Sequence record: NC_054908.1 | DNA: 64,000 nucleotides | Source of the DNA: Escherichia phage vB_EcoM_DalCa | Reading direction: 5' to 3' (one strand) | Part shown: piece after piece, positions 11,901 through 21,392 of the stretch | How the letters are laid out: the number at the start of each line of letters is the position of its first letter | Position numbering within the stretch: position 1 is the first letter of the stretch | The notes under the pieces: generated by a model | What the model saw: the letters and a program-made list of their open reading frames with translations, nothing else | What the model was told of the DNA's origin: nothing | The model's database searches: none | Position numbers and translations under genes: made by a program

Positions 11901-12221
11901 TTATAGCGTAATCCATTCTCGTACTATCTGAGTTACTACACGTTCACGGGGCTCGACTAGTTCAACAGTCGGAACTGCATAATACCAGTCAGAATGATAA
12001 GAACCTGACCGAGATTCATTTACCGCTACATGTACATTATGTTTTGGACTAAAGTAAACACACTGACGATATTGGCATTTACCATCTTGCACCCAGTCTT
12101 CTATTTCGATAGGTTTAAGATAGTCGGAAAAATCGAAATCATAGTTTTCCGAAAATGCATCATGGTCTTCAATAATTTCGCTCAGAACTGCATCAACATC
12201 TAATTTATTTTCAATAGTCAT
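11901..12221 (-). CDS. Hypothetical protein
   Basis: 106-aa acidic ORF. Confidence 0.5.
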   Translation of the reverse strand: MTIENKLDVDAVLSEIIEDHDAFSENYDFDFSDYLKPIEIEDWVQDGKCQYRQCVYFSPKHNVHVAVNESRSGSYHSDWYYAVPTVELVEPRERVVTQIVREWITL

Positions 12222-12881: not shown

Positions 12882-13139
12882 TTATTCCTTAATTCCTAGT
12901 ACTTGTTTAAAAGTCTCGTCGTAATCAAGACTTTGGCCCGTTTGTTCTTTATGTTTGTATATAATATCACTTACTTCTGATAGCATATTTTTATATGAAC
13001 GAGTTAAAGCAGATTTAAGCACGCTGTATCTATCAGGAAATTTACCATGTTCATTATAATAAGCTATTGCTAATTCACGGACTGCCTTTTCAGCAGTCTC
13101 CATATATTCTTTACGCTTGGTCATTTTCTTCTCGGTCAA
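12882..13139 (-). CDS. Hypothetical protein
   Basis: 85-aa ORF, 1 nt from nrdC. Confidence 0.5.
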
Positions 13140-13407
13140 ATCGGTGTTTACAATGGCGACATTTATAACGAAGATTATTAGTCTGCCAATGAACTAATTG
13201 TACCTGTTCAGTACCGCATTCAGGACAATTAGGAACGTTTTTAGAAGCCCTTTCGCGACGCTTAACCATAGCCATAATGGCATCCCATGCTGGAGGTTTA
13301 AAATCTAAATCGTCAGTAACTAGCAGTCCTTTATCAAACCCAGCGCATGGAGTCCATTCAGGAAAATCTGAAGCTTCGGCAATATCTTCTAATAAACGCT
13401 TTTTCAT
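13111..13407 (-). CDS. Hypothetical zinc-ribbon protein
   Basis: 98 aa; CPECG...CRHCKH four-Cys ribbon. Confidence 0.5.
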
Positions 13408-14330
13408 TTCAGTACCTCAATAGCATCACGTAAACCATTTGCTTTGGCGGTTAAAGCCTTAAGAACTTTAGTATGCTCTTCAATCTGTTTTTCAACTTCA
13501 ATCAAACGAGCACTGAGATATTCGCGTTCTTCTTTCATAGTATCATTCCCACGATTGGGCTTTGGTGTAGGTTTAAATTCACTAGGGTCCTTTAATTTAA
13601 TAACAAATTTAGTTTCAAACAGTGAAAGACCATAATTCGTATTATCATCAAAGGATTTGACTACATCCATATCAGATAATAACGTACGAAGATTATAAGT
13701 CAAAGAACGAATCGTTTTATTATGTTTATTAGCTTCACACGGTTTCATATATGGAAGATTTTTATATATCTCATTCGGAGCGCAAACGATAATTGACAAT
13801 TCAAATTGTCCATTCTGGGACGATGGAATGAATTTAGCCGTAACCCAGTCTTTTACATTCACATTAATAGTACGGTTATCACCATGACAAAACAGTCTAC
13901 GAGAATGCTTAAAAAGCATATTCACGTTATTATTGAATTCGTGTGAAAATTCACTAGCAAATTTTTCTTTACTATTTTTAGAAAACCATTCTTCTAAATA
14001 AGTTCTTTTCACGTCATTAATAATATTAAATGTAACAACATTAGCATTTGATACATTAGTCTCAATGTAGCTTGGATACATAAATTTTTTAACATTATTA
14101 ACAGCTATCACAGAAGATAGTAATCGGGAACGTTTAAACCATTCAAGCAAATTGCCTAACGAATGAGAATACGCATTTTGTGTATCTTTACAAATATGGT
14201 TTTCCCATCCAATATAGTCTAAAAAATCACGAAGAATATTATTGATTACTGCTCTGTGTCCTATCTGATAATTACGATGTTTAGTAATAAGACTGTCAAA
14301 ATAATCAATATAATGTTTACGAGTTTTCAT
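13404..14330 (-). CDS. Hypothetical protein with C-terminal coiled-coil (paralog family member)
   Basis: 308 aa; C-terminal ~40 aa heptad-like E/K-rich segment after a Pro-containing linker. Confidence 0.55.
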   Translation of the reverse strand: MKTRKHYIDYFDSLITKHRNYQIGHRAVINNILRDFLDYIGWENHICKDTQNAYSHSLGNLLEWFKRSRLLSSVIAVNNVKKFMYPSYIETNVSNANVVTFNIINDVKRTYLEEWFSKNSKEKFASEFSHEFNNNVNMLFKHSRRLFCHGDNRTINVNVKDWVTAKFIPSSQNGQFELSIIVCAPNEIYKNLPYMKPCEANKHNKTIRSLTYNLRTLLSDMDVVKSFDDNTNYGLSLFETKFVIKLKDPSEFKPTPKPNRGNDTMKEEREYLSARLIEVEKQIEEHTKVLKALTAKANGLRDAIEVLK

Positions 14331-14382
14331 GTTCTTCTCACTTGGTTAATGATTTATACTCCGAGCCATCCTTGGCTTTAAA

Positions 14383-15381
14383 TTACTTAATTAACTGTAA
14401 AGCTTGTTCAAGACGATCCAGGCGATTAACAGATTCTTCCCAAATCCTTTTAGCCTGCTCATATTCTTTCTGCGCTTTATTAGAAATTTCTAGAACTTCT
14501 TTATAAGCTTTTTCTAATGCAATAACTTCTGGACGAATTTCTACCGGTTCAGGTGAATCATCAAGATTATCCATTAGTTCCTCAAGGGTAGTTTCTTCTT
14601 TAGGAGTATTCACAATTTCATCACATTTTTGTTGGTAAATTTCTTTATCAGTAGGTGAATAAGCACATTTCACTTCACGAAGGCTAATTATGAGTTTATA
14701 TCCTTCCCAACCGCATATATTTTTAAAAGGATATGTATGAATATTTTCTACTGTTTCCATACAAAGTAATGCGGTCTCTAACTGACGAGTTATATCACTA
14801 GCAATTGAGAAAAATTTATTAATATTCTTTTGGTTAGCGTTTGGTGTAAAAAATCCATAATTCACAAAAATAGCTACTTTATTTTCATCAAGCTCATATT
14901 CTTTTACGATAATCATATCAGAAGCCAAAGGATGAATTTGACGATAATCGCCATAACATAATTTAGAAGCTGATTTTAGAATTTGTCCTTTGAAAAGTCT
15001 GAAATTACTAATCCAACGACGAGTAAAAATATTCTCAGGGGCTTCTTTATTAAGATGATAAGAATTAACATCACCGAACCAATTATATCCTACTACATCT
15101 TTGGTTCGTTTAATTTCTTTCCCAAAATTACCAAGAATATCCCGATTAACCAAATATGAAAGAAGACGAGATCCTTTAAAGGTTTTCTTAATGGCATCTT
15201 TATTTGTACGACTAGAAATTTCATGAACTTCATGAATAAATTTGCCGGAAGAAACAATACTTGCATCAATATTATTGAGCCATTGATTGATAATAGAAAG
15301 AACACTATTTTGGCCAAACAGCGGTATAACTTTATCATCAATAACGCTATTGAATGATTTGATATATTCGTTACGAGTCAT
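14383..15381 (-). CDS. Hypothetical protein with C-terminal coiled-coil (paralog family member)
   Basis: ORF 14383..15411 trimmed to ATG (MTRNEYI) preceded by GAGGAG; the longer ORF would overlap an early-type promoter. Confidence 0.55.
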   Translation of the reverse strand: MTRNEYIKSFNSVIDDKVIPLFGQNSVLSIINQWLNNIDASIVSSGKFIHEVHEISSRTNKDAIKKTFKGSRLLSYLVNRDILGNFGKEIKRTKDVVGYNWFGDVNSYHLNKEAPENIFTRRWISNFRLFKGQILKSASKLCYGDYRQIHPLASDMIIVKEYELDENKVAIFVNYGFFTPNANQKNINKFFSIASDITRQLETALLCMETVENIHTYPFKNICGWEGYKLIISLREVKCAYSPTDKEIYQQKCDEIVNTPKEETTLEELMDNLDDSPEPVEIRPEVIALEKAYKEVLEISNKAQKEYEQAKRIWEESVNRLDRLEQALQLIK

Positions 15382-15409
15382 ATTAATCTCCTCAGTAGAA
15401 AGTAAGAAC

Positions 15410-15438
15410 ATTATACCACATCCTTGTGGCGAAGTAAA
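15410..15438 (-). promoter_or_regulatory. T4 early-type promoter upstream of 14383..15381
   Basis: Minus strand -35 GTTTACT, 17-bp spacer, TGG-TATAAT extended -10. Confidence 0.5.
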
Positions 15439-16458
15439 CTAGTTCAGTGCATTTAGTGCGTTGTTCAGTTTAGAACGTTGCTTCGTGAGATTTTTGACTT
15501 TTTCTTGAGCTTTTTCTAGCATCTTTTCAGCTTCTAGCACTTCATTGGTCGCTTTAACGAGTTCATCATCTACTGCCTTGATAGACTTCTCAATCGCATC
15601 CGCGTGCCATTTTTCAACAGGTTTAAGACTCGGATTTTCAATAGGAAGAAAATTCACTTTATTGAATTTCCATGCATCTTTATTGCCTGAACTATACATC
15701 CAAAATTTAGGATCGTTTGATGAGTAATTAGATAAATTTAAGTTATCTTGCACTTCTTGCTTTTTCTCTTGCGGGACTTCATCCTTTCTCAAAAAATCGT
15801 ATTTAAATGAAACGATCATATCAAGTTCATATGTTGTTGTATGTTCCCAATTTCGCTCAAAACGAGGTAAAATCTTAGAATGAACAGCGGCAACAACATC
15901 CATATACTTAAATGCTTCTGTCAACTGCGATTTAAGGCATTCGCAAATTGAAAGAGAATTTTTTGTATTAGGTTTAAAGCTAATTCGTGCAGTTCTATTA
16001 TTTTCTTTTAATGGTCTTACTTCCATCTGAAGAGTATAACCATCAAATTTCAGGTTCTTTAAGTTAATGTCAGAACCTTTTAATCGACTAGCCGTCGACA
16101 AAATTTGCTTTAATTGTTTACGGAATAGAGCAATAAATCTCCATTCAAGACGATAATGATTTGGATTAAAAAATCCTGTTGATAAATCAACCTTACTCTG
16201 ACCAACGCCTTGAACAAATAGAGGATTTTTATAATCAATAGTTTTACAGAAATCGGTGAGCTGCTCACGAGCAGTCATTTGTGTAATATATCCCGCTTTA
16301 CTAAAATGACGTAACCATTCACTGCTATTCATATACTTAAAGTGAATATCACGATTAACTTTATCAGGGTCTAAATTATTTTCACACAAAAATGTCATAA
16401 CATCACGAGTATAGCTGGCATTACGAACCATATCTTCAATTTGAGAACGAGTTTTCAT
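15439..16458 (-). CDS. Hypothetical protein with C-terminal coiled-coil (paralog family member)
   Basis: 339 aa; C-terminal coiled-coil-like tail. Confidence 0.55.
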   Translation of the reverse strand: MKTRSQIEDMVRNASYTRDVMTFLCENNLDPDKVNRDIHFKYMNSSEWLRHFSKAGYITQMTAREQLTDFCKTIDYKNPLFVQGVGQSKVDLSTGFFNPNHYRLEWRFIALFRKQLKQILSTASRLKGSDINLKNLKFDGYTLQMEVRPLKENNRTARISFKPNTKNSLSICECLKSQLTEAFKYMDVVAAVHSKILPRFERNWEHTTTYELDMIVSFKYDFLRKDEVPQEKKQEVQDNLNLSNYSSNDPKFWMYSSGNKDAWKFNKVNFLPIENPSLKPVEKWHADAIEKSIKAVDDELVKATNEVLEAEKMLEKAQEKVKNLTKQRSKLNNALNALN

Positions 16459-16466
16459 AGTGTTCC

Positions 16467-17375
16467 TTAAGATTTAAGTAAATCAACAATTTTAATTAAC
16501 TTTTCACGCTCAGATTTAGCTTTACTACTCAATCCAGATAGTCTGAAAATTTCATCGTCATATTGTTGAATAGAAATATTCAGCTCTTCAATTTGCTTAT
16601 TAAAATAATCAATTTGTTCAGAATGTTTTTCATTACTACAAACTGGTACAGGTTTTGTAGGTAATTTAGTTGAACTGGATTCATCCGGGCGATAAATTAA
16701 AATACAACTTGAACCAATAGGACATTTTACACCAGACGAATATTCTAATGTTCCAGATTCTTTTAAAACTTCAAAAGCTAAACAGAGATGATGCCCCATA
16801 TTGACATAATCTGTAGAGTGAGCTCTGATATAATAATCATCGCCGCGAATACTAAATTTAAAGCATTTAAGGTCTTCTGTATTATTGGTCTTAAAAATCA
16901 TTTGTTTATCTAGACCTTTAGCTAATCGAGCGCCTAATGCTAATAATCGTCGTTGATTTTCCCACAAATCCGCAATCATTTGATCGAATGATAATTTCGG
17001 CATTAGTCGACCATAAAGGTCGTATCCTTTATTATAATTGCGAAGGATTTCACTCGCATTAATACGAGACAATGCTCCAATTTTATTAAGGGCTTTCATA
17101 ATGCGATTAGATAAACCCATTCCAGACCCGTTTGTTCGCTGTAAATGTTTTTCTAATCCAAATCCAATATCAACTTTAAACTTATCTAAAATTTCTGCAT
17201 GAACATCTCTGTCAATAACATTCAAATCCAAAGTTGGGTTAAATCTATGAAAAAATTTATCTGGCTCTCCACGACGAAGTACAGTCCATTCATTCAATTT
17301 TTTATTAACTAAAGATTTAATTACTGCATTGACATTATTAATTACTACTGACATATTTTCCTCACTCAATTTCAA
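16467..17375 (-). CDS. Hypothetical protein with C-terminal coiled-coil (paralog family member)
   Basis: 302 aa; C-terminal coiled-coil-like tail. Confidence 0.55.
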   Translation of the reverse strand: MKLSEENMSVVINNVNAVIKSLVNKKLNEWTVLRRGEPDKFFHRFNPTLDLNVIDRDVHAEILDKFKVDIGFGLEKHLQRTNGSGMGLSNRIMKALNKIGALSRINASEILRNYNKGYDLYGRLMPKLSFDQMIADLWENQRRLLALGARLAKGLDKQMIFKTNNTEDLKCFKFSIRGDDYYIRAHSTDYVNMGHHLCLAFEVLKESGTLEYSSGVKCPIGSSCILIYRPDESSSTKLPTKPVPVCSNEKHSEQIDYFNKQIEELNISIQQYDDEIFRLSGLSSKAKSEREKLIKIVDLLKS

Positions 17376-17769
17376 TTTTACTAAATACGCAGAATATGAT
17401 GGAAAAAACTATATAAGCACCGCATACAGATTGAACTAATACCATTCCAAAGAACCAAACAATATTATCAAACAATGTCTGTTTTACGTCGAAAGGACGT
17501 AAACTTACAGTAATATTATCACCTTTTTCTATTGAAGAATACATCTCTGGTGAAATATATTCGCTAAATCTATAACCATCATTCAGCTCATATACAGCAA
17601 TAAACGATAAACTAGACCCCTTTCCTTGTGTTCCTGTAAAGGTATTAACTACAGTAACATCATAATCTTTATAATGCATATAATCATTAATTGCGTAATA
17701 ACCATATGCAATTACTATACATAAACAACATATCAATAAATTCAATCTTTTAATTATCAACTGTTTCAT
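17362..17769 (-). CDS. Hypothetical membrane protein
   Basis: 135 aa; N-terminal and C-terminal hydrophobic helices. Confidence 0.5.
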   Translation of the reverse strand: MKQLIIKRLNLLICCLCIVIAYGYYAINDYMHYKDYDVTVVNTFTGTQGKGSSLSFIAVYELNDGYRFSEYISPEMYSSIEKGDNITVSLRPFDVKQTLFDNIVWFFGMVLVQSVCGAYIVFSIIFCVFSKIEIE

Positions 17770-17824
17770 AATAATCTCAATTAAAAGGGCTTAGAACCAT
17801 TATACCATCCTTGGTATAAAGCGG

Positions 17825-18352
17825 TTATGCGAGTACCGTCTTTAACCGTTCTTCAAACTTCCGAAGAGTATTTTGGCGTTCAGCTCTTTGCTTTTTGTAA
17901 GTTTCAATACGCTCTGAAATGAGAGTGTATCGTTCATTTACTGATTCTTTCATAAAATCAGGAATTTCACGAGAAGCTTTAATCTCATCAAATTTATCAA
18001 TAACAGCTTGCTCTTCAGCAATTAAGTTATCATACATCAAAATATCTTTCTTGATGAACTCAATATCTTCTTGAGTTACACGAGATAACTTAGATGCTTT
18101 ATCCTTTTTGTACTGTTCGTTAGTATCACGAGACCAATGTAATGTACGATTTTTATTCGTATTTTTGTAAATTTCTACAATACCAATCTCATCAATAATA
18201 ACGATCCAATTCCAACGGGATTTGTAAATTTGTCCTCCATCAACCGCGATTTCACCACCGATTGAGACATCATTAAAGAACTTGCTTTGAGCTTCAGATT
18301 TAAATTTACCATCATTGTAGTTTACTAAGTTGAAAATATCTTTAGCATTCAT
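17825..18352 (-). CDS. Hypothetical protein with C-terminal coiled-coil
   Basis: ORF 17825..18412 trimmed to ATG (MNAKDIF) preceded by GGAGG; the upstream 20 codons lie in a conserved promoter module. Confidence 0.5.
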   Translation of the reverse strand: MNAKDIFNLVNYNDGKFKSEAQSKFFNDVSIGGEIAVDGGQIYKSRWNWIVIIDEIGIVEIYKNTNKNRTLHWSRDTNEQYKKDKASKLSRVTQEDIEFIKKDILMYDNLIAEEQAVIDKFDEIKASREIPDFMKESVNERYTLISERIETYKKQRAERQNTLRKFEERLKTVLA

Positions 18353-18380
18353 TTTCTGTTCCTCCGTAGTTGATAGTTGT

Positions 18381-18409
18381 ATAGTATCACAGAGGAACAG
18401 TCTTGTAAA
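18381..18409 (-). promoter_or_regulatory. T4 early-type promoter module upstream of 17825..18352
   Basis: Conserved module TGATAGTTGTATAGTATCAC...TGTAAACAAC on plus; minus -35 GTTTACA, 17-bp spacer, -10 TACTAT. Confidence 0.5.
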
Positions 18410-18412
18410 CAA

Positions 18413-18727
18413 CTAAAAGAAACTTCTTTCACAATTTTTTCCACTAAACCATGCGCTCACTGCTTTCTTAGTCTCAGGAGCAGTGTTATCCATAAACCAT
18501 TCAAAGGCAGCCTTTTTATGATTCTGGAGGGCTTCTCGGGCTTTAATCTGCTCACGGTCTATTAACACTAACATATGAGCCTTTCTTGTCACCAAGGGCT
18601 TCTTATGATTTTTTGAATACTCCCAATCATTTGTCCATCGCATCGTTGTTGCGAACTGAAATACTGCTTCTTTAATTTTAGTTTCGTAAATTTCACGAGC
18701 CTTTGAGTATAACATCATTACCTCCAT
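18413..18727 (-). CDS. Hypothetical protein
   Basis: 104-aa ORF. Confidence 0.5.
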   Translation of the reverse strand: MEVMMLYSKAREIYETKIKEAVFQFATTMRWTNDWEYSKNHKKPLVTRKAHMLVLIDREQIKAREALQNHKKAAFEWFMDNTAPETKKAVSAWFSGKNCERSFF

Positions 18728-18815
18728 TTACCAGTTTAATTCTAGTCATTTTTTGATGGCAGTCCATATAATCTATTTCTGAACTGCCTTTTTATCTTAG
18801 AAGGCCTCTTATGAA

Positions 18816-19796
18816 TTATTTCAGAAGAGTAACCTCAGCGATTTCTTCCCAACCGTTTTTGTCGGTCATAATAAAGTCAGCAAGATAAAGTGCAGTACGC
18901 AGTGAAACATTGCGTAAACGATTAACATTAACTTTCATCCATGATAATGCTTTATAAGTTTCTTCATCAGAAAGACCGCGTTTTTGCATCATGTCAGTTG
19001 AAAGAATAACATCTTCAACCCTGACCATAATTTCTTCATTAGTGTGAACACCCAAATCCAAATAAACTGAGCGGGAAACTAATGCTTGTAAATGTGGAGC
19101 AAGTTTAGTACCACGGTCTAATTCGCGGTCAATGTCAACGTTTGTGATAAAAACAATCGTTCCTTTAAATTCAAACTCACGCTCAATGCCTTTTTCTTCT
19201 AAGTAAGAAGATGCGGTGCTCCAGCAGACTTTACGGGTCTCTCCGGTGTCCAGAGCAGCTTTCAGAAGATTAAGAATGTCCATATCAGAGAAAACATCCA
19301 CATCATCAATCAAAAGGACAGAATTCTCTTCACGATTATTCCAAAGCTGTTCATAAAGACCGATACCAGAGATTTTACCATTAATGCTTTTATATTCGAT
19401 GTATCCAATATCATTTGCTTTATTTAAAGCTTTATCTAAAGAATACGTTTTACCAATACCTGCTGCTCCAGAGATAATTAATGAACGAATGTTTCCGTTA
19501 ATAATACCATTCGTCATCATTCCCATAACATTAAATCTTTTATTAATGCGGGTTTTCATATCTTCATACGATTCTTTAACTTCTTCAACTTTTACACCAT
19601 CATATGAAATGTCTGATTTGTAAACCCAAACACCGCGACGCTTACCGTCAATTTCAACAAAAACTTTACCATCTCCTTGTGCATCTACCGGAGCATTATC
19701 TGGGAACCATTCACCTAAGAGCTCAAAAGTTCCAGAGATTTCTTTACCGAAGTAGATACCCTTATTGATAGTTACAGTTTTCATTTTATTCTCCAA
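18816..19796 (-). CDS. Predicted P-loop NTPase (AAA-like)
   Basis: 326 aa; Walker A GAAGIGKT and Walker B-like VLLIDDVD; early-type promoter upstream. Confidence 0.6.
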   Translation of the reverse strand: MENKMKTVTINKGIYFGKEISGTFELLGEWFPDNAPVDAQGDGKVFVEIDGKRRGVWVYKSDISYDGVKVEEVKESYEDMKTRINKRFNVMGMMTNGIINGNIRSLIISGAAGIGKTYSLDKALNKANDIGYIEYKSINGKISGIGLYEQLWNNREENSVLLIDDVDVFSDMDILNLLKAALDTGETRKVCWSTASSYLEEKGIEREFEFKGTIVFITNVDIDRELDRGTKLAPHLQALVSRSVYLDLGVHTNEEIMVRVEDVILSTDMMQKRGLSDEETYKALSWMKVNVNRLRNVSLRTALYLADFIMTDKNGWEEIAEVTLLK

Positions 19797-19853: not shown

Positions 19854-20117
19854 TTATTTTAATGTTTGCCAAATTTTTACTGCTTCACGACGAGATACTT
19901 CTACAGCTCCAAGTTCTACAGCTTTTTGGCGTCGCCGAGCGTGTAAGTCATAATGTTTAATGCGTTTATCTTGAAACCAAGAACGTTTCATTCCTATTGC
20001 TTCTGCCATTTCGTGAAGCTCTTCAATATCTCCATCAGTGAACATATGACAATTTTTAGTTGGATGACCGCGAAGTTTCCATCCATGATTCATTAAAACA
20101 TCTACGTAAACTGTCAT
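19854..20117 (-). CDS. Hypothetical protein
   Basis: 87-aa ORF, His/Arg-rich. Confidence 0.5.
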   Translation of the reverse strand: MTVYVDVLMNHGWKLRGHPTKNCHMFTDGDIEELHEMAEAIGMKRSWFQDKRIKHYDLHARRRQKAVELGAVEVSRREAVKIWQTLK

Positions 20118-20299
20118 TGATTCTTCTCCAAATAAGTTTCGATAATTTTCTGGGCGAGATAAACCGCGTTATCTTCAGTTGCGTCTTCCAAGAAACTTTC
20201 AAAACACTCTGAAATTTCTTCTGTATCAATCAACTTTTTTACTTCAATTGGTGTAATTTTCATTTTGTTTTCCGTTTAAGTGTTTGTTTTGATAGTTGT

Positions 20300-20345: not shown

Positions 20346-20376
20346 TTTGAAATAAAAAGGGAGCCCGAAGGCTCCC
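20346..20376 (-). terminator. Intrinsic terminator downstream of nucleotidyltransferase-like gene
   Basis: On minus strand GGGAGCC-UUCG-GGCUCCC followed by UUUUUAUUUC. Confidence 0.65.
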
Positions 20377-20378
20377 TA

Positions 20379-21392
20379 TCATTTATAATAACTTCGGTGG
20401 TTTTCAAGATAGACCTTCTCAAGGAAGTCATCCCAGAAACTCATGTCTACTGTTTTAGGCATACCGTTCTTAGAAGCTTCAATAGATGCTGCTTCTACTT
20501 GATCGACCACATCTTCCAAAAACTCTTGAACCGTTTTAAATGGATGTTTACCCAACTTCACGTCGAGAATAAATGGAGCATCTTGGAGTGGATAAACCAA
20601 GTCACCAGTTTTGTAAATTTCCAATAGTTGGAGTCCACCACGGCAAGCATGACTCAGAGCTTTCCAGTCAATACCTTCATTGGCTTCGGCCTTACGAGCA
20701 CGTTCACCATATTCAGCATCTAATTTGTTCAGTGACTGCTTAAGCTCAATAAGAGAAAGCGTTGTCTGATATTTACGACCCAACACAGTGTAGAACGTTT
20801 GTGGGCCTGTTTTCTCATGATTATGGAACACCCATTCACAGAATTCGTTTTCTGGAAGACGATGCTTAATATCTTCAACTTTAGTGCGACGCTGCTTAAT
20901 AGAACCATCTTCTTGGTAATCAATCCACTGCTCAGGGATTTGATTAACTACTTTCAATACATCACGTAATGCAGCCAAACGAGAACCCTTGACACCGTAT
21001 TTAGAAGCTTGCTTGCGGACATATCCTAAATAGGATTTCATGTTAGTCGTATAAAAACGAGAACGGTTGTCTTGAATAAACTTCCACACATCAGGCAAAT
21101 CAGATTTAACCACTAGTTCAGGTGGAGTGTGAAGCATATCCAATGCTACAGTTTCACCATCTGCTGCTAATTTAAAGAAATATTTAAGACTGTATAGTTC
21201 ATGGTCAATATCATCTTTAGTGTTTTTAGATGATGTGTTGTTAGTGTTTTTACTCATGTGCTCTTTGACATTTCCGATAAGAATATCACGAGCAGGAGGA
21301 ACAAAAATTTCTTTAAAATCTACATCAGATTCTGGGGTAGAAGTTCCATAAAGATGACTACCAAAATAGCTTTTCATTACTGTTTTCATCAT
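20379..21392 (-). CDS. Predicted nucleotidyltransferase-fold protein (Pol-beta superfamily-like)
   Basis: 337 aa; N-terminal GSHLYGTSTPESDVDF matches the GS...D.D nucleotidyltransferase signature; strong terminator hairpin downstream. Confidence 0.55.
   Translation of the reverse strand: MMKTVMKSYFGSHLYGTSTPESDVDFKEIFVPPARDILIGNVKEHMSKNTNNTSSKNTKDDIDHELYSLKYFFKLAADGETVALDMLHTPPELVVKSDLPDVWKFIQDNRSRFYTTNMKSYLGYVRKQASKYGVKGSRLAALRDVLKVVNQIPEQWIDYQEDGSIKQRRTKVEDIKHRLPENEFCEWVFHNHEKTGPQTFYTVLGRKYQTTLSLIELKQSLNKLDAEYGERARKAEANEGIDWKALSHACRGGLQLLEIYKTGDLVYPLQDAPFILDVKLGKHPFKTVQEFLEDVVDQVEAASIEASKNGMPKTVDMSFWDDFLEKVYLENHRSYYK

Follow-up and report, generated by a model that had tools for sequence, protein, structure and literature searches.

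No virulent phage has been studied better than T4, but four genes of its nrdC region, nrdC.3, nrdC.4, nrdC.6 and nrdC.8, have no assigned function. For nrdC.5, located in the same group, a function has been published: it counteracts the bacterial defence protein Dsr1 and restores infection on Dsr1-carrying cells, and a plasmid-borne copy rescued the T4 deletion mutant on MG1655 carrying Dsr1 (Srikant et al. 2022, PMC9391042). The TPR sensor of Dsr1 is reported to recognise the phage major capsid protein (2026 preprint, PMC12803255). In the literature we found no mechanism or structure for nrdC.3 to nrdC.6, no functional studies on nrdC.3, nrdC.4, nrdC.6 or nrdC.8, and no papers on DUF7235, the Pfam family of NrdC.5. 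In this study the corresponding genes were analysed in Escherichia phage vB_EcoM_DalCa (sequence record NC_054908.1), in a stretch of 64,000 nucleotides that is called the window below and to which coordinates refer unless another record is named. The explanation that we consider best overall, with moderate confidence, is that nrdC.3 to nrdC.6 encode early oligomeric inhibitors of host immunity which were diversified by tandem duplication.

The closest parallel in action that we found is DSAD1 of phage SPbeta, an inhibitor of the SIR2 NADase DSR2 (PMC10973363, PMC11087589, PMC11263360). Like NrdC.5, it counters a defence-associated sirtuin that senses a phage structural protein, and we propose it as a mechanistic analogy for NrdC.5, which by this comparison might be a direct-binding, pre-emptive inhibitor. 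No sequence or fold relationship between DSAD1 and NrdC.5 was found, a Foldseek search against the PDB, including the DSR2-DSAD1 complexes, giving no match at E≤0.001, and Dsr1 and DSR2 differ in their sensors. Closer relatives are found within the T4-like phages themselves. The NrdC.5 protein of the window is the direct orthologue of T4 NrdC.5, with 92.9% identity over 339 aligned residues and the same position and length, whereas nrdC.3, nrdC.4 and nrdC.6 are its paralogues, with the same architecture of body, linker and tail and with body identities of 11-23%. The anti-Dsr1 phenotype belongs to the T4 NrdC.5 allele, to which the allele studied here is linked by orthology only.

The window is part of a Tequatrovirus (T4-like) genome. 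Its bases 13000-19000 share 90-97% nucleotide identity with Yersinia phage fPS-65, Escherichia phage teqhad and approximately 460 further T4-like records. An original prediction, made from the letters of the window, had flagged five open reading frames (ORFs) as a tandem array of early genes whose products have divergent N-terminal domains and a common C-terminal coiled-coil tail. All five exist and lie on the minus strand, and comparison with the annotated T4 record identified them as orthologues of nrdC.3 (13404..14330, 308 residues, 93.5% protein identity to T4), nrdC.4 (14383..15381, 332 residues, 92.2%), nrdC.5 (15439..16458, 339 residues, 92.9%), nrdC.6 (16467..17354, 295 residues, 92.7%) and nrdC.8 (17825..18352, 175 residues, 97.7%). 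For nrdC.6 the predicted start, a TTG at 17375, is unlikely; the most likely start is the ATG at 17354, which is supported by a GAGG Shine-Dalgarno sequence 6 nt upstream, by the alignment of the PHROG profile, which begins at residue 8, and by the T4 annotation. Nor are the five genes consecutive, because nrdC.7 (17362..17769, minus strand) separates nrdC.6 from nrdC.8. This gene, present in the ORF list and matching phrog_2547, encodes a predicted membrane protein according to the T4 annotation; it gave no match to the superfamily hidden Markov model (HMM) described below and is outside the family.

Judged by profile comparison, nrdC.3, nrdC.4 and nrdC.5 very likely form one paralogue family. 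BLASTP among the paralogues of this genome was weak (best E=0.003), while across genera nrdC.3 matched nrdC.4 at 1e-5 to 1e-6, and an unnamed gene of Dhakavirus and Gaprivervirus, here called X, matched nrdC.5 at 1e-16. NrdC.3 and NrdC.4 both match phrog_1435 from end to end (E=5e-99 and 8e-166, respectively), as well as the newer Pfam family PF26897, and NrdC.5 matches DUF7235 (PF23882) with E=8e-127. Profiles of the families were compiled from nine phage loci and from database matches, and their full-length comparison with hhalign gave E=2.9e-11 for nrdC.3 and nrdC.4 (201 columns), 1.3e-5 for nrdC.4 and nrdC.5 (251 columns) and 1.2e-4 for nrdC.3 and nrdC.5 (274 columns, end to end). The bodies alone, i.e. 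the proteins with the last 55 residues removed, gave 5e-11 (213 columns), 2.3e-5 and 7e-3 for the same pairs, and all body-only controls with reversed sequences remained at E≥0.15. The N-terminal 250-300 residues, which had been described as different from each other, are thus homologous in nrdC.3 to nrdC.5 and, less strongly, in nrdC.6.

NrdC.6, a member of PF26899 and phrog_2257, is the most divergent protein of the group, and it probably belongs to the same family. A merged profile of the nrdC.3, nrdC.4 and nrdC.5 families matched the nrdC.6 family at E=7.3e-5 over 112 core columns and at 3.2e-4 with bodies only (0.56 when reversed), and the two motifs of highest conservation, 'F.kS..LS...A...L..F' and 'F..N...LL..A.RL..G', were paired in the alignment. 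Further, NrdC.6 has a pre-tail 'E-K-H...I' motif and the end of the tail in common with NrdC.5 and distant members, colinear motifs are common to the four families in a 31-sequence alignment, and the HMM of a merged alignment of the four families (A3, 64 sequences) matches all four ORFs.

In an exhaustive search of 1.84 billion representative proteins the merged-profile HMM retrieved 31 clusters at E≤1e-3, recovering with this one model all four families together with distant full-length members. The proteins of the window are clear members of families already held in databases, PHROGs 1435, 2351 and 2257 and Pfam PF26897 (nrdC.3 and nrdC.4) and PF26899 (nrdC.6). These databases hold at least three separate families of unknown function, which are here merged with DUF7235 into one superfamily with a C-terminal coiled coil conserved throughout. 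What is probably new is this link between PF26897, DUF7235 and PF26899; it is possible that a Pfam clan already groups them.

The fifth gene of the presumed array, nrdC.8, is very likely outside the family, so that of the five members originally proposed for a diversified paralogue family four are retained. NrdC.8 was considered as a superfamily member and rejected: it has 175 residues compared to approximately 300, its helical region is preceded by only about 105-130 of them, and both the merged body profile and the tail profile were negative. No family reached an E-value below 0.05 in hhalign, the value for the merged profile was 0.15, and neither the body-merged HMM nor the tail HMM detected the protein at E≤10. 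Under a tail HMM of 44 sequences its score was 4.6 bits both in the real and in the reversed direction, and this score was equalled or exceeded by 31 of 1000 shuffles. A profile search against PDB sequences found no match. The protein stands apart from the family: its heptad-like C-terminal helix is its own, and its sequence is well conserved and evolves slowly (84% identity to the Mosigvirus orthologue, 68-100% across genera). In one 2026 paper nrdC.8 is treated as a 'nucleotide reductase', apparently through a misreading of its name that has no support in the sequence. In phage Bp7 the C-terminus of nrdC.8 is aberrant (…GRSIVRTPASRTSGRAPIA; L003 4366-4917), suggesting a frameshift.

The C-terminal heptad-like segments were confirmed in all five proteins. 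With a simple ad hoc scorer the maximum heptad score was located within the last 30-55 residues of each (residues 278-305 of NrdC.3 and 242-273 of NrdC.6, for example), and when the whole protein was shuffled 200 times this score was equalled in only 0-8 cases. The last 46 residues consist to 48-59% of E, K, R, Q and L and contain at most one Pro or Gly. In 44 aligned tails of the nrdC.3 to nrdC.6 superfamily the columns rich in L, I, V, M and F are 5, 8, 12, 15, 19, 22, 26, 29, 33, 36, 40, 43, 47 and 50, an a/d heptad pattern that runs without a break over approximately 46 residues or 6.5 heptads; at least four heptads of a/d periodicity without helix breakers, the classical description of a coiled coil, are thus present in the tails of nrdC.3 to nrdC.6. 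The only matches of the superfamily profile to PDB sequences were classical coiled coils (GCN4, SPC42, BST2 and NEMO), aligned on the tail and below the threshold. A Pro-rich stretch precedes the tail in NrdC.3 to NrdC.6 (KPTPKPN, SPEPVEIRPE, PIENPSLKP and LPTKPVPV); the linker had been predicted for all five proteins, but NrdC.8 has none.

On the minus strand of the window the tails, all of them at the C-terminal ends of the genes, correspond to 13407..13544 for nrdC.3 (the last ~46 residues, from the heptad score and the 44-tail column pattern), 14386..14532 for nrdC.4 (residues 284-332), 15442..15621 for nrdC.5 (residues 280-339) and 16470..16607 for nrdC.6 (the last ~46 residues, intact here and out of frame in the T4 reference). 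The limits for nrdC.4 and nrdC.5 are from AlphaFold2 (AF2) models, which predict a helix at 284-331 of NrdC.4, with a predicted local distance difference test score (pLDDT) of 75-83 for the block, and one long helix at 280-338 of NrdC.5 (pLDDT 63-91), even though the body of the latter could not be modelled. The NrdC.4 helix holds the near-invariant Leu columns L324 and L331 of the four-family alignment.

Tested alone, the tails were barely distinguishable from decoys. In family-to-family HMM comparisons against shuffled and reversed decoys a few pairs reached p ~0.01-0.05, and most were non-significant. The claim that the isolated tails are significantly similar was therefore dropped, and full-length colinearity was used as the basis instead: the tails of nrdC.3 to nrdC.6 are regarded as homologous because they are the colinear end of a homologous protein. 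Similarity beyond composition, as originally suggested, thus holds for these four tails through the whole proteins, but not for NrdC.8, the tail of which has no specific similarity to the others. Distant full-length members (285-345 residues, approximately 15-25% identity) all retain a C-terminal helix ending '...QR.KL..A[IL]..L[KN]', so that the end-anchored L..A[IL]..L[KN] signature persists at this level of divergence. The complete arrangement, a heptad helix of ~46 residues with this ending after a Pro-rich linker, was found in nrdC.3 to nrdC.6 and in the distant members P0220-P0234. A pre-tail motif, 'P.E.H[YF]A..[IM]E.S[IV]', is common to NrdC.5, NrdC.6 and many of the distant members.

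Among the paralogues of this genome the tails share 12-26% identity and the bodies 11-23%. Within orthologue lineages, on the other hand, the tail is more conserved than the body (tail/body identities of 76/56, 62/42, 59/26 and 61/38%). As the bodies are homologous and the tails are as diverged as the bodies, whole-gene duplication is indicated rather than the fusion of effectors to a common tail. On the present alignments, nrdC.3 to nrdC.6 are one whole protein that was duplicated in tandem and diverged, not the product of domain shuffling onto a shared docking module, and the tail is an ancestral part of this protein, each paralogue having its own constrained tail.

Structure prediction is consistent with this view. 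With its own shallow single-family alignment the AF2 model of NrdC.5 reached a pLDDT of 44 and was left out of the fold search. NrdC.4 was modelled with the merged alignment of 64 sequences, and the mean pLDDT was 82.9 with a predicted template modelling score (pTM) of 0.68, a rise that fits families sharing one fold. The model has an alpha/beta body (residues 1-258), a low-confidence linker (260-282, pLDDT <50) and the C-terminal helix. Foldseek found no related solved structure in the PDB at E≤0.001, the 64-sequence alignment has no invariant column, and Pfam, NCBIfam and PADLOC contained no known family above cut-off for the array proteins except DUF7235; these three results together point to a binder rather than an enzyme. 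A subdomain of the predicted alpha/beta body faintly resembles the phage tail-terminator/tail-completion fold (lambda gpU, Mu, GTA).

The family was confined to T4-like phages in our searches. All 170 matches of a word-indexed search and all structural neighbours in BFVD are uncharacterised T4-like phage proteins of approximately 300-370 residues, from phages infecting Escherichia, Shigella, Yersinia, Enterobacter, Pectobacterium, Klebsiella, Erwinia, Serratia and Acinetobacter. The location between nrdC and the AAA-like gene nrdC.10 holds for nrdC.3 to nrdC.6 in the window and in all T4-like loci fetched (T4, Mosigvirus, Dhakavirus, Gaprivervirus, Kanagawavirus and Jiaodavirus). Copy number varies from four in Tequatrovirus to three or two in Mosigvirus and one in Kanagawavirus and Jiaodavirus; Dhakavirus and Gaprivervirus have three copies including the nrdC.5-like gene X, which in Bp7 is visible to BLASTP only. 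NrdC.3, NrdC.5 and NrdC.6 are 24-56% identical to their Mosigvirus orthologues, compared to 77-88% for nrdC, nrdC.8, nrdC.10, nrdC.11 and gp49. Such fast divergence, combined with variable copy number and with pseudogenised, fused and frameshifted copies, is at the level of sequence the signature of an arms race.

The frameshifted copy is that of T4 itself. Compared to positions ~16540-16550 of the window, nrdC.6 in the T4 reference NC_000866.4 (locus L001, 5567-6394) has a deletion of 1 nt (ctgAatattt -> ctg-atattt), by which the coiled-coil tail is exchanged for 'IFLFNNMMMKFSDYLD', while DNA coding for the tail persists downstream. The deletion is either a mutation of the laboratory strain or an error in the reference sequence. 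Other irregular copies were also seen. In SP18 the nrdC.5-like gene is split into two ORFs (L007 6940-7844) and is probably a pseudogene. The database protein P0056 consists of residues ~145-265 of NrdC.5 fused to residues ~138-308 of NrdC.3 at a 'KVN / NVN' microhomology, which implies that in some phage of the T4-like group nrdC.4 was lost through recombination between the paralogues. P0231 and P0228 are short remnants in which only the tail of NrdC.5 or NrdC.6, respectively, is left.

An anti-defence role, raised as a possibility in the original prediction, is a reasonable reading in view of the anti-Dsr1 function of T4 nrdC.5 (PMC9391042) and the 93% identity of the protein found here; the shared docking module proposed together with it was not upheld. 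The neighbourhood points in the same direction. The recently published anti-defence genes gp49.2 and nrdC.1 inhibit OLD (PMC13096335) and Septu (bioRxiv 10.1101/2025.11.20.689424), respectively, and their orthologues are located beside the array at 11901-12221 and 12882-13139. With these two genes adjoining it, the whole stretch from pin to nrdC.6 looks like an anti-defence island. The paralogues probably have different targets, as indicated by the body identities of only 11-23%.

We propose that the four proteins would be made early in infection from T4 early-type promoters, each with an alpha/beta body of approximately 240-280 residues, a Pro-rich flexible linker and an amphipathic heptad helix of about 46 residues. 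The tail would drive homo-oligomerisation to a dimer or trimer, resulting in a multivalent binder, and the fast-evolving body would bind and neutralise a protein of host immunity. For NrdC.5 the target would be the SIR2-TPR NADase Dsr1, blocked before its reported late trigger, the major capsid protein, appears, so that NAD+ would not be depleted. Tandem duplication and divergence may then have provided up to four specificities in Tequatrovirus, directed against different defence proteins or alleles. That the whole family acts as anti-defence, oligomeric binders in this way has in our view about an even chance of being correct; we infer the oligomerisation, the direct binding and the roles of nrdC.3, nrdC.4 and nrdC.6.

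Early expression, which had also been predicted, is supported by early-type promoters found in the gaps upstream of nrdC.4, nrdC.7/nrdC.6, nrdC.8 and nrdC.10, and by the description of nrdC.5 as an early gene (PMC9391042). An early-type promoter was defined as a GTTTAC-like -35 element and a TG-extended TATAAT-like -10 element approximately 17 nt apart, and only intergenic sites were accepted; the number of sigma-70-like sites as such was not above the shuffle expectation (37 vs 33.4).

Several observations weigh against the proposed role. An experimental phenotype exists for only one of the four paralogues, nrdC.5, and both Dsr1 binding and the oligomeric state are proposals. The support for including nrdC.6 is moderate (hhalign probability 39-63%, E ~1e-4), and its pairwise hhalign comparisons with the single families of nrdC.3, nrdC.4 and nrdC.5 were not significant. 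The out-of-frame tail of nrdC.6 in the T4 reference means that this copy is dispensable in laboratory conditions, unless it is a sequencing error. A tail that is more conserved than the body is also not readily explained by self-association alone, and the tail could instead bind the target.

It is possible, but unlikely, that the genes have a housekeeping or host-takeover role, for example as a scaffold in early replication or nucleotide metabolism or in membrane or nucleoid remodelling, and that the effect on Dsr1 is indirect. They are located amid genes of nucleotide metabolism (nrdC, nrdD/G and tk), nrdC.5 was published as a phenotype rather than a mechanism, and many T4-like GenBank records label the products of nrdC.3 to nrdC.10 'thioredoxin', or occasionally 'replication protein', 'spanin' or 'tail sheath protein'. 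However, the 'thioredoxin' labels are a propagation of the nrdC.x locus name without sequence support: a thioredoxin or glutaredoxin identity of nrdC.3 to nrdC.6 was considered and rejected, as neither family was among the Pfam or NCBIfam matches. The varying copy number, the pseudogene decay and a divergence far above that of conserved neighbours are atypical of core functions, the adjacent genes are proven anti-defence genes, and infection of Dsr1-carrying MG1655 by the T4 deletion mutant was restored by nrdC.5 on a plasmid.

Equally improbable, in our estimate, is a variant of the anti-defence role in which the four paralogues are decoys. Oligomerised by the coiled coil, each would serve a different bacterial sensor (TPR clades of the Dsr1/Avs7 type or other sensors of structural proteins), and the body, with its faintly tail-terminator-like subdomain, would mimic a virion epitope and occupy the sensor early without activating it. 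If this were true, nrdC.3, nrdC.4 and nrdC.6 would add three anti-defence proteins that have not been described before, and T4-like phages would have in this family a general 'sensor-blinding' scaffold.

Slightly less probable still is that the C-terminal helix itself is the target binder, for example as a pseudo-ligand in the superhelix of a Dsr1-type TPR domain, with the body stabilising it or giving a second contact and the paralogues differing in the sensor fitted. Helical or extended peptides are common ligands of TPR domains. Dsr1 is reported to sense its trigger through such a domain (PMC12803255), and the tail is the best-conserved part within a lineage yet differs between paralogues. 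On the other side, the strict a/d pattern over 6.5 heptads, with a Leu-rich core conserved throughout the superfamily, has the look of a self-associating coiled coil, and the supposed interaction would be read from conservation.

Homologous bodies and mutually diverged tails leave little room for the modular arrangement of the original prediction, in which five unrelated effector domains would each be fused to one common tail, used either for docking on a shared partner or for assembly into one hetero-oligomer; we consider it improbable. All five proteins do end in a heptad-patterned helix, and the tails do outdo the bodies in conservation within orthologue lineages, but the tails of paralogues in the same genome are no more alike than their bodies, and each paralogue has its own constrained tail, which makes a common docking surface unlikely; the tail of NrdC.8 is not specifically similar to any of them. 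A further point in favour of such modularity is P0235, a protein of 173 residues encoded on an 803-nt ENA contig (k141_89665, locus L008), in which a foreign N-terminus of 120 residues is joined to a tail identical to the NrdC.5 tail of this phage. The breakpoint, at 15600, is exactly the junction of the nrdC.5 body and tail, and the contig matches 15600-15277, running into the start of nrdC.4. P0235 represents either a replacement of the body or a chimeric assembly. We gave it little weight because the contig is a metagenomic one of only 803 nt and its N-terminal part had no match in 50,697 phage records, so that it may be a mis-assembly.

That the resemblance is altogether spurious, arising from composition and coiled-coil bias among five unrelated adjacent ORFans, would agree with the mostly non-significant tail-only tests and the weak BLASTP within this genome, but it is very improbable in view of the significant body-only comparisons with their negative reversed controls, the cross-genus BLASTP matches, the one PHROG that spans nrdC.3 and nrdC.4, the rescue of the AF2 prediction by the merged alignment and the single HMM that retrieves four families and distant members.

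Under the favoured explanation of early oligomeric inhibitors, nrdC.3, nrdC.4 and nrdC.6 are, as full-length paralogues of the anti-Dsr1 gene nrdC.5, concrete and testable anti-defence candidates. The unit to work with is the body together with linker and coiled coil, the tail being a constrained element, and the syntenic slot between nrdC and nrdC.10, with one to four copies in T4-like phages, can be searched in other phages. The analysis also corrects the widespread mis-annotation as thioredoxin and makes it probable that three Pfam families should be united. The advance is incremental: the ORFs have long been known from T4, one function was already published, and the mechanism given here is a proposal.

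The intergenic gaps have some further features in common. The predicted promoter upstream of nrdC.4 (15410..15438, minus strand) consists of GTTTAC, a 17-nt spacer and TGGTATAAT, with 10 of 12 consensus matches and the TG extension, and that upstream of nrdC.8 (18381..18409, minus strand), identified by consensus scan and reading of the sequence, of GTTTACA, 17 nt and TGATACTAT. The gap upstream of nrdC.7/nrdC.6 (17770..17824, minus strand) contains a promoter-like TGGTATAAT and a hairpin with CAAGGATG. The latter motif has only three copies in the whole window (14367-14374, 15419-15426 and 17806-17813, minus strand), in each case in a gap of the array and on the coding strand, and each copy forms a small hairpin (GCCAAGGATGGC, CCACAAGGATGTGG and TACCAAGGATGGTA) between the -35-like and -10-like elements of a site that resembles an early promoter. 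The number of copies is not above chance, as 30 of 100 shuffles reach three, while their placement is striking; CAAGGATG may belong to a promoter/terminator cassette that has been duplicated.

Beyond the array, two ORFs that are absent from T4 at this position were observed between nrdC.10 and nrdC.11. One encodes a DUF4031 protein of 87 residues (19854-20117, minus strand; Pfam E=1e-21) and the other, within 20118-20270, a small acidic protein of approximately 49 residues (MKITPIEVKK...); upstream of both are an early-type promoter and, at 20358-20377, a strong terminator hairpin. NrdC.10 (18816-19796) has weak matches, below cut-off, to AAA and STAND-NTPase-like domains (AAA_14 and nSTAND3), and NrdC.11 (20379-21392) matches RlaP, a pol-beta-type nucleotidyltransferase of an RNA-repair pathway, with E=4e-11. 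Both nrdC.10 and nrdC.11 are conserved across genera far better than nrdC.3 to nrdC.6.

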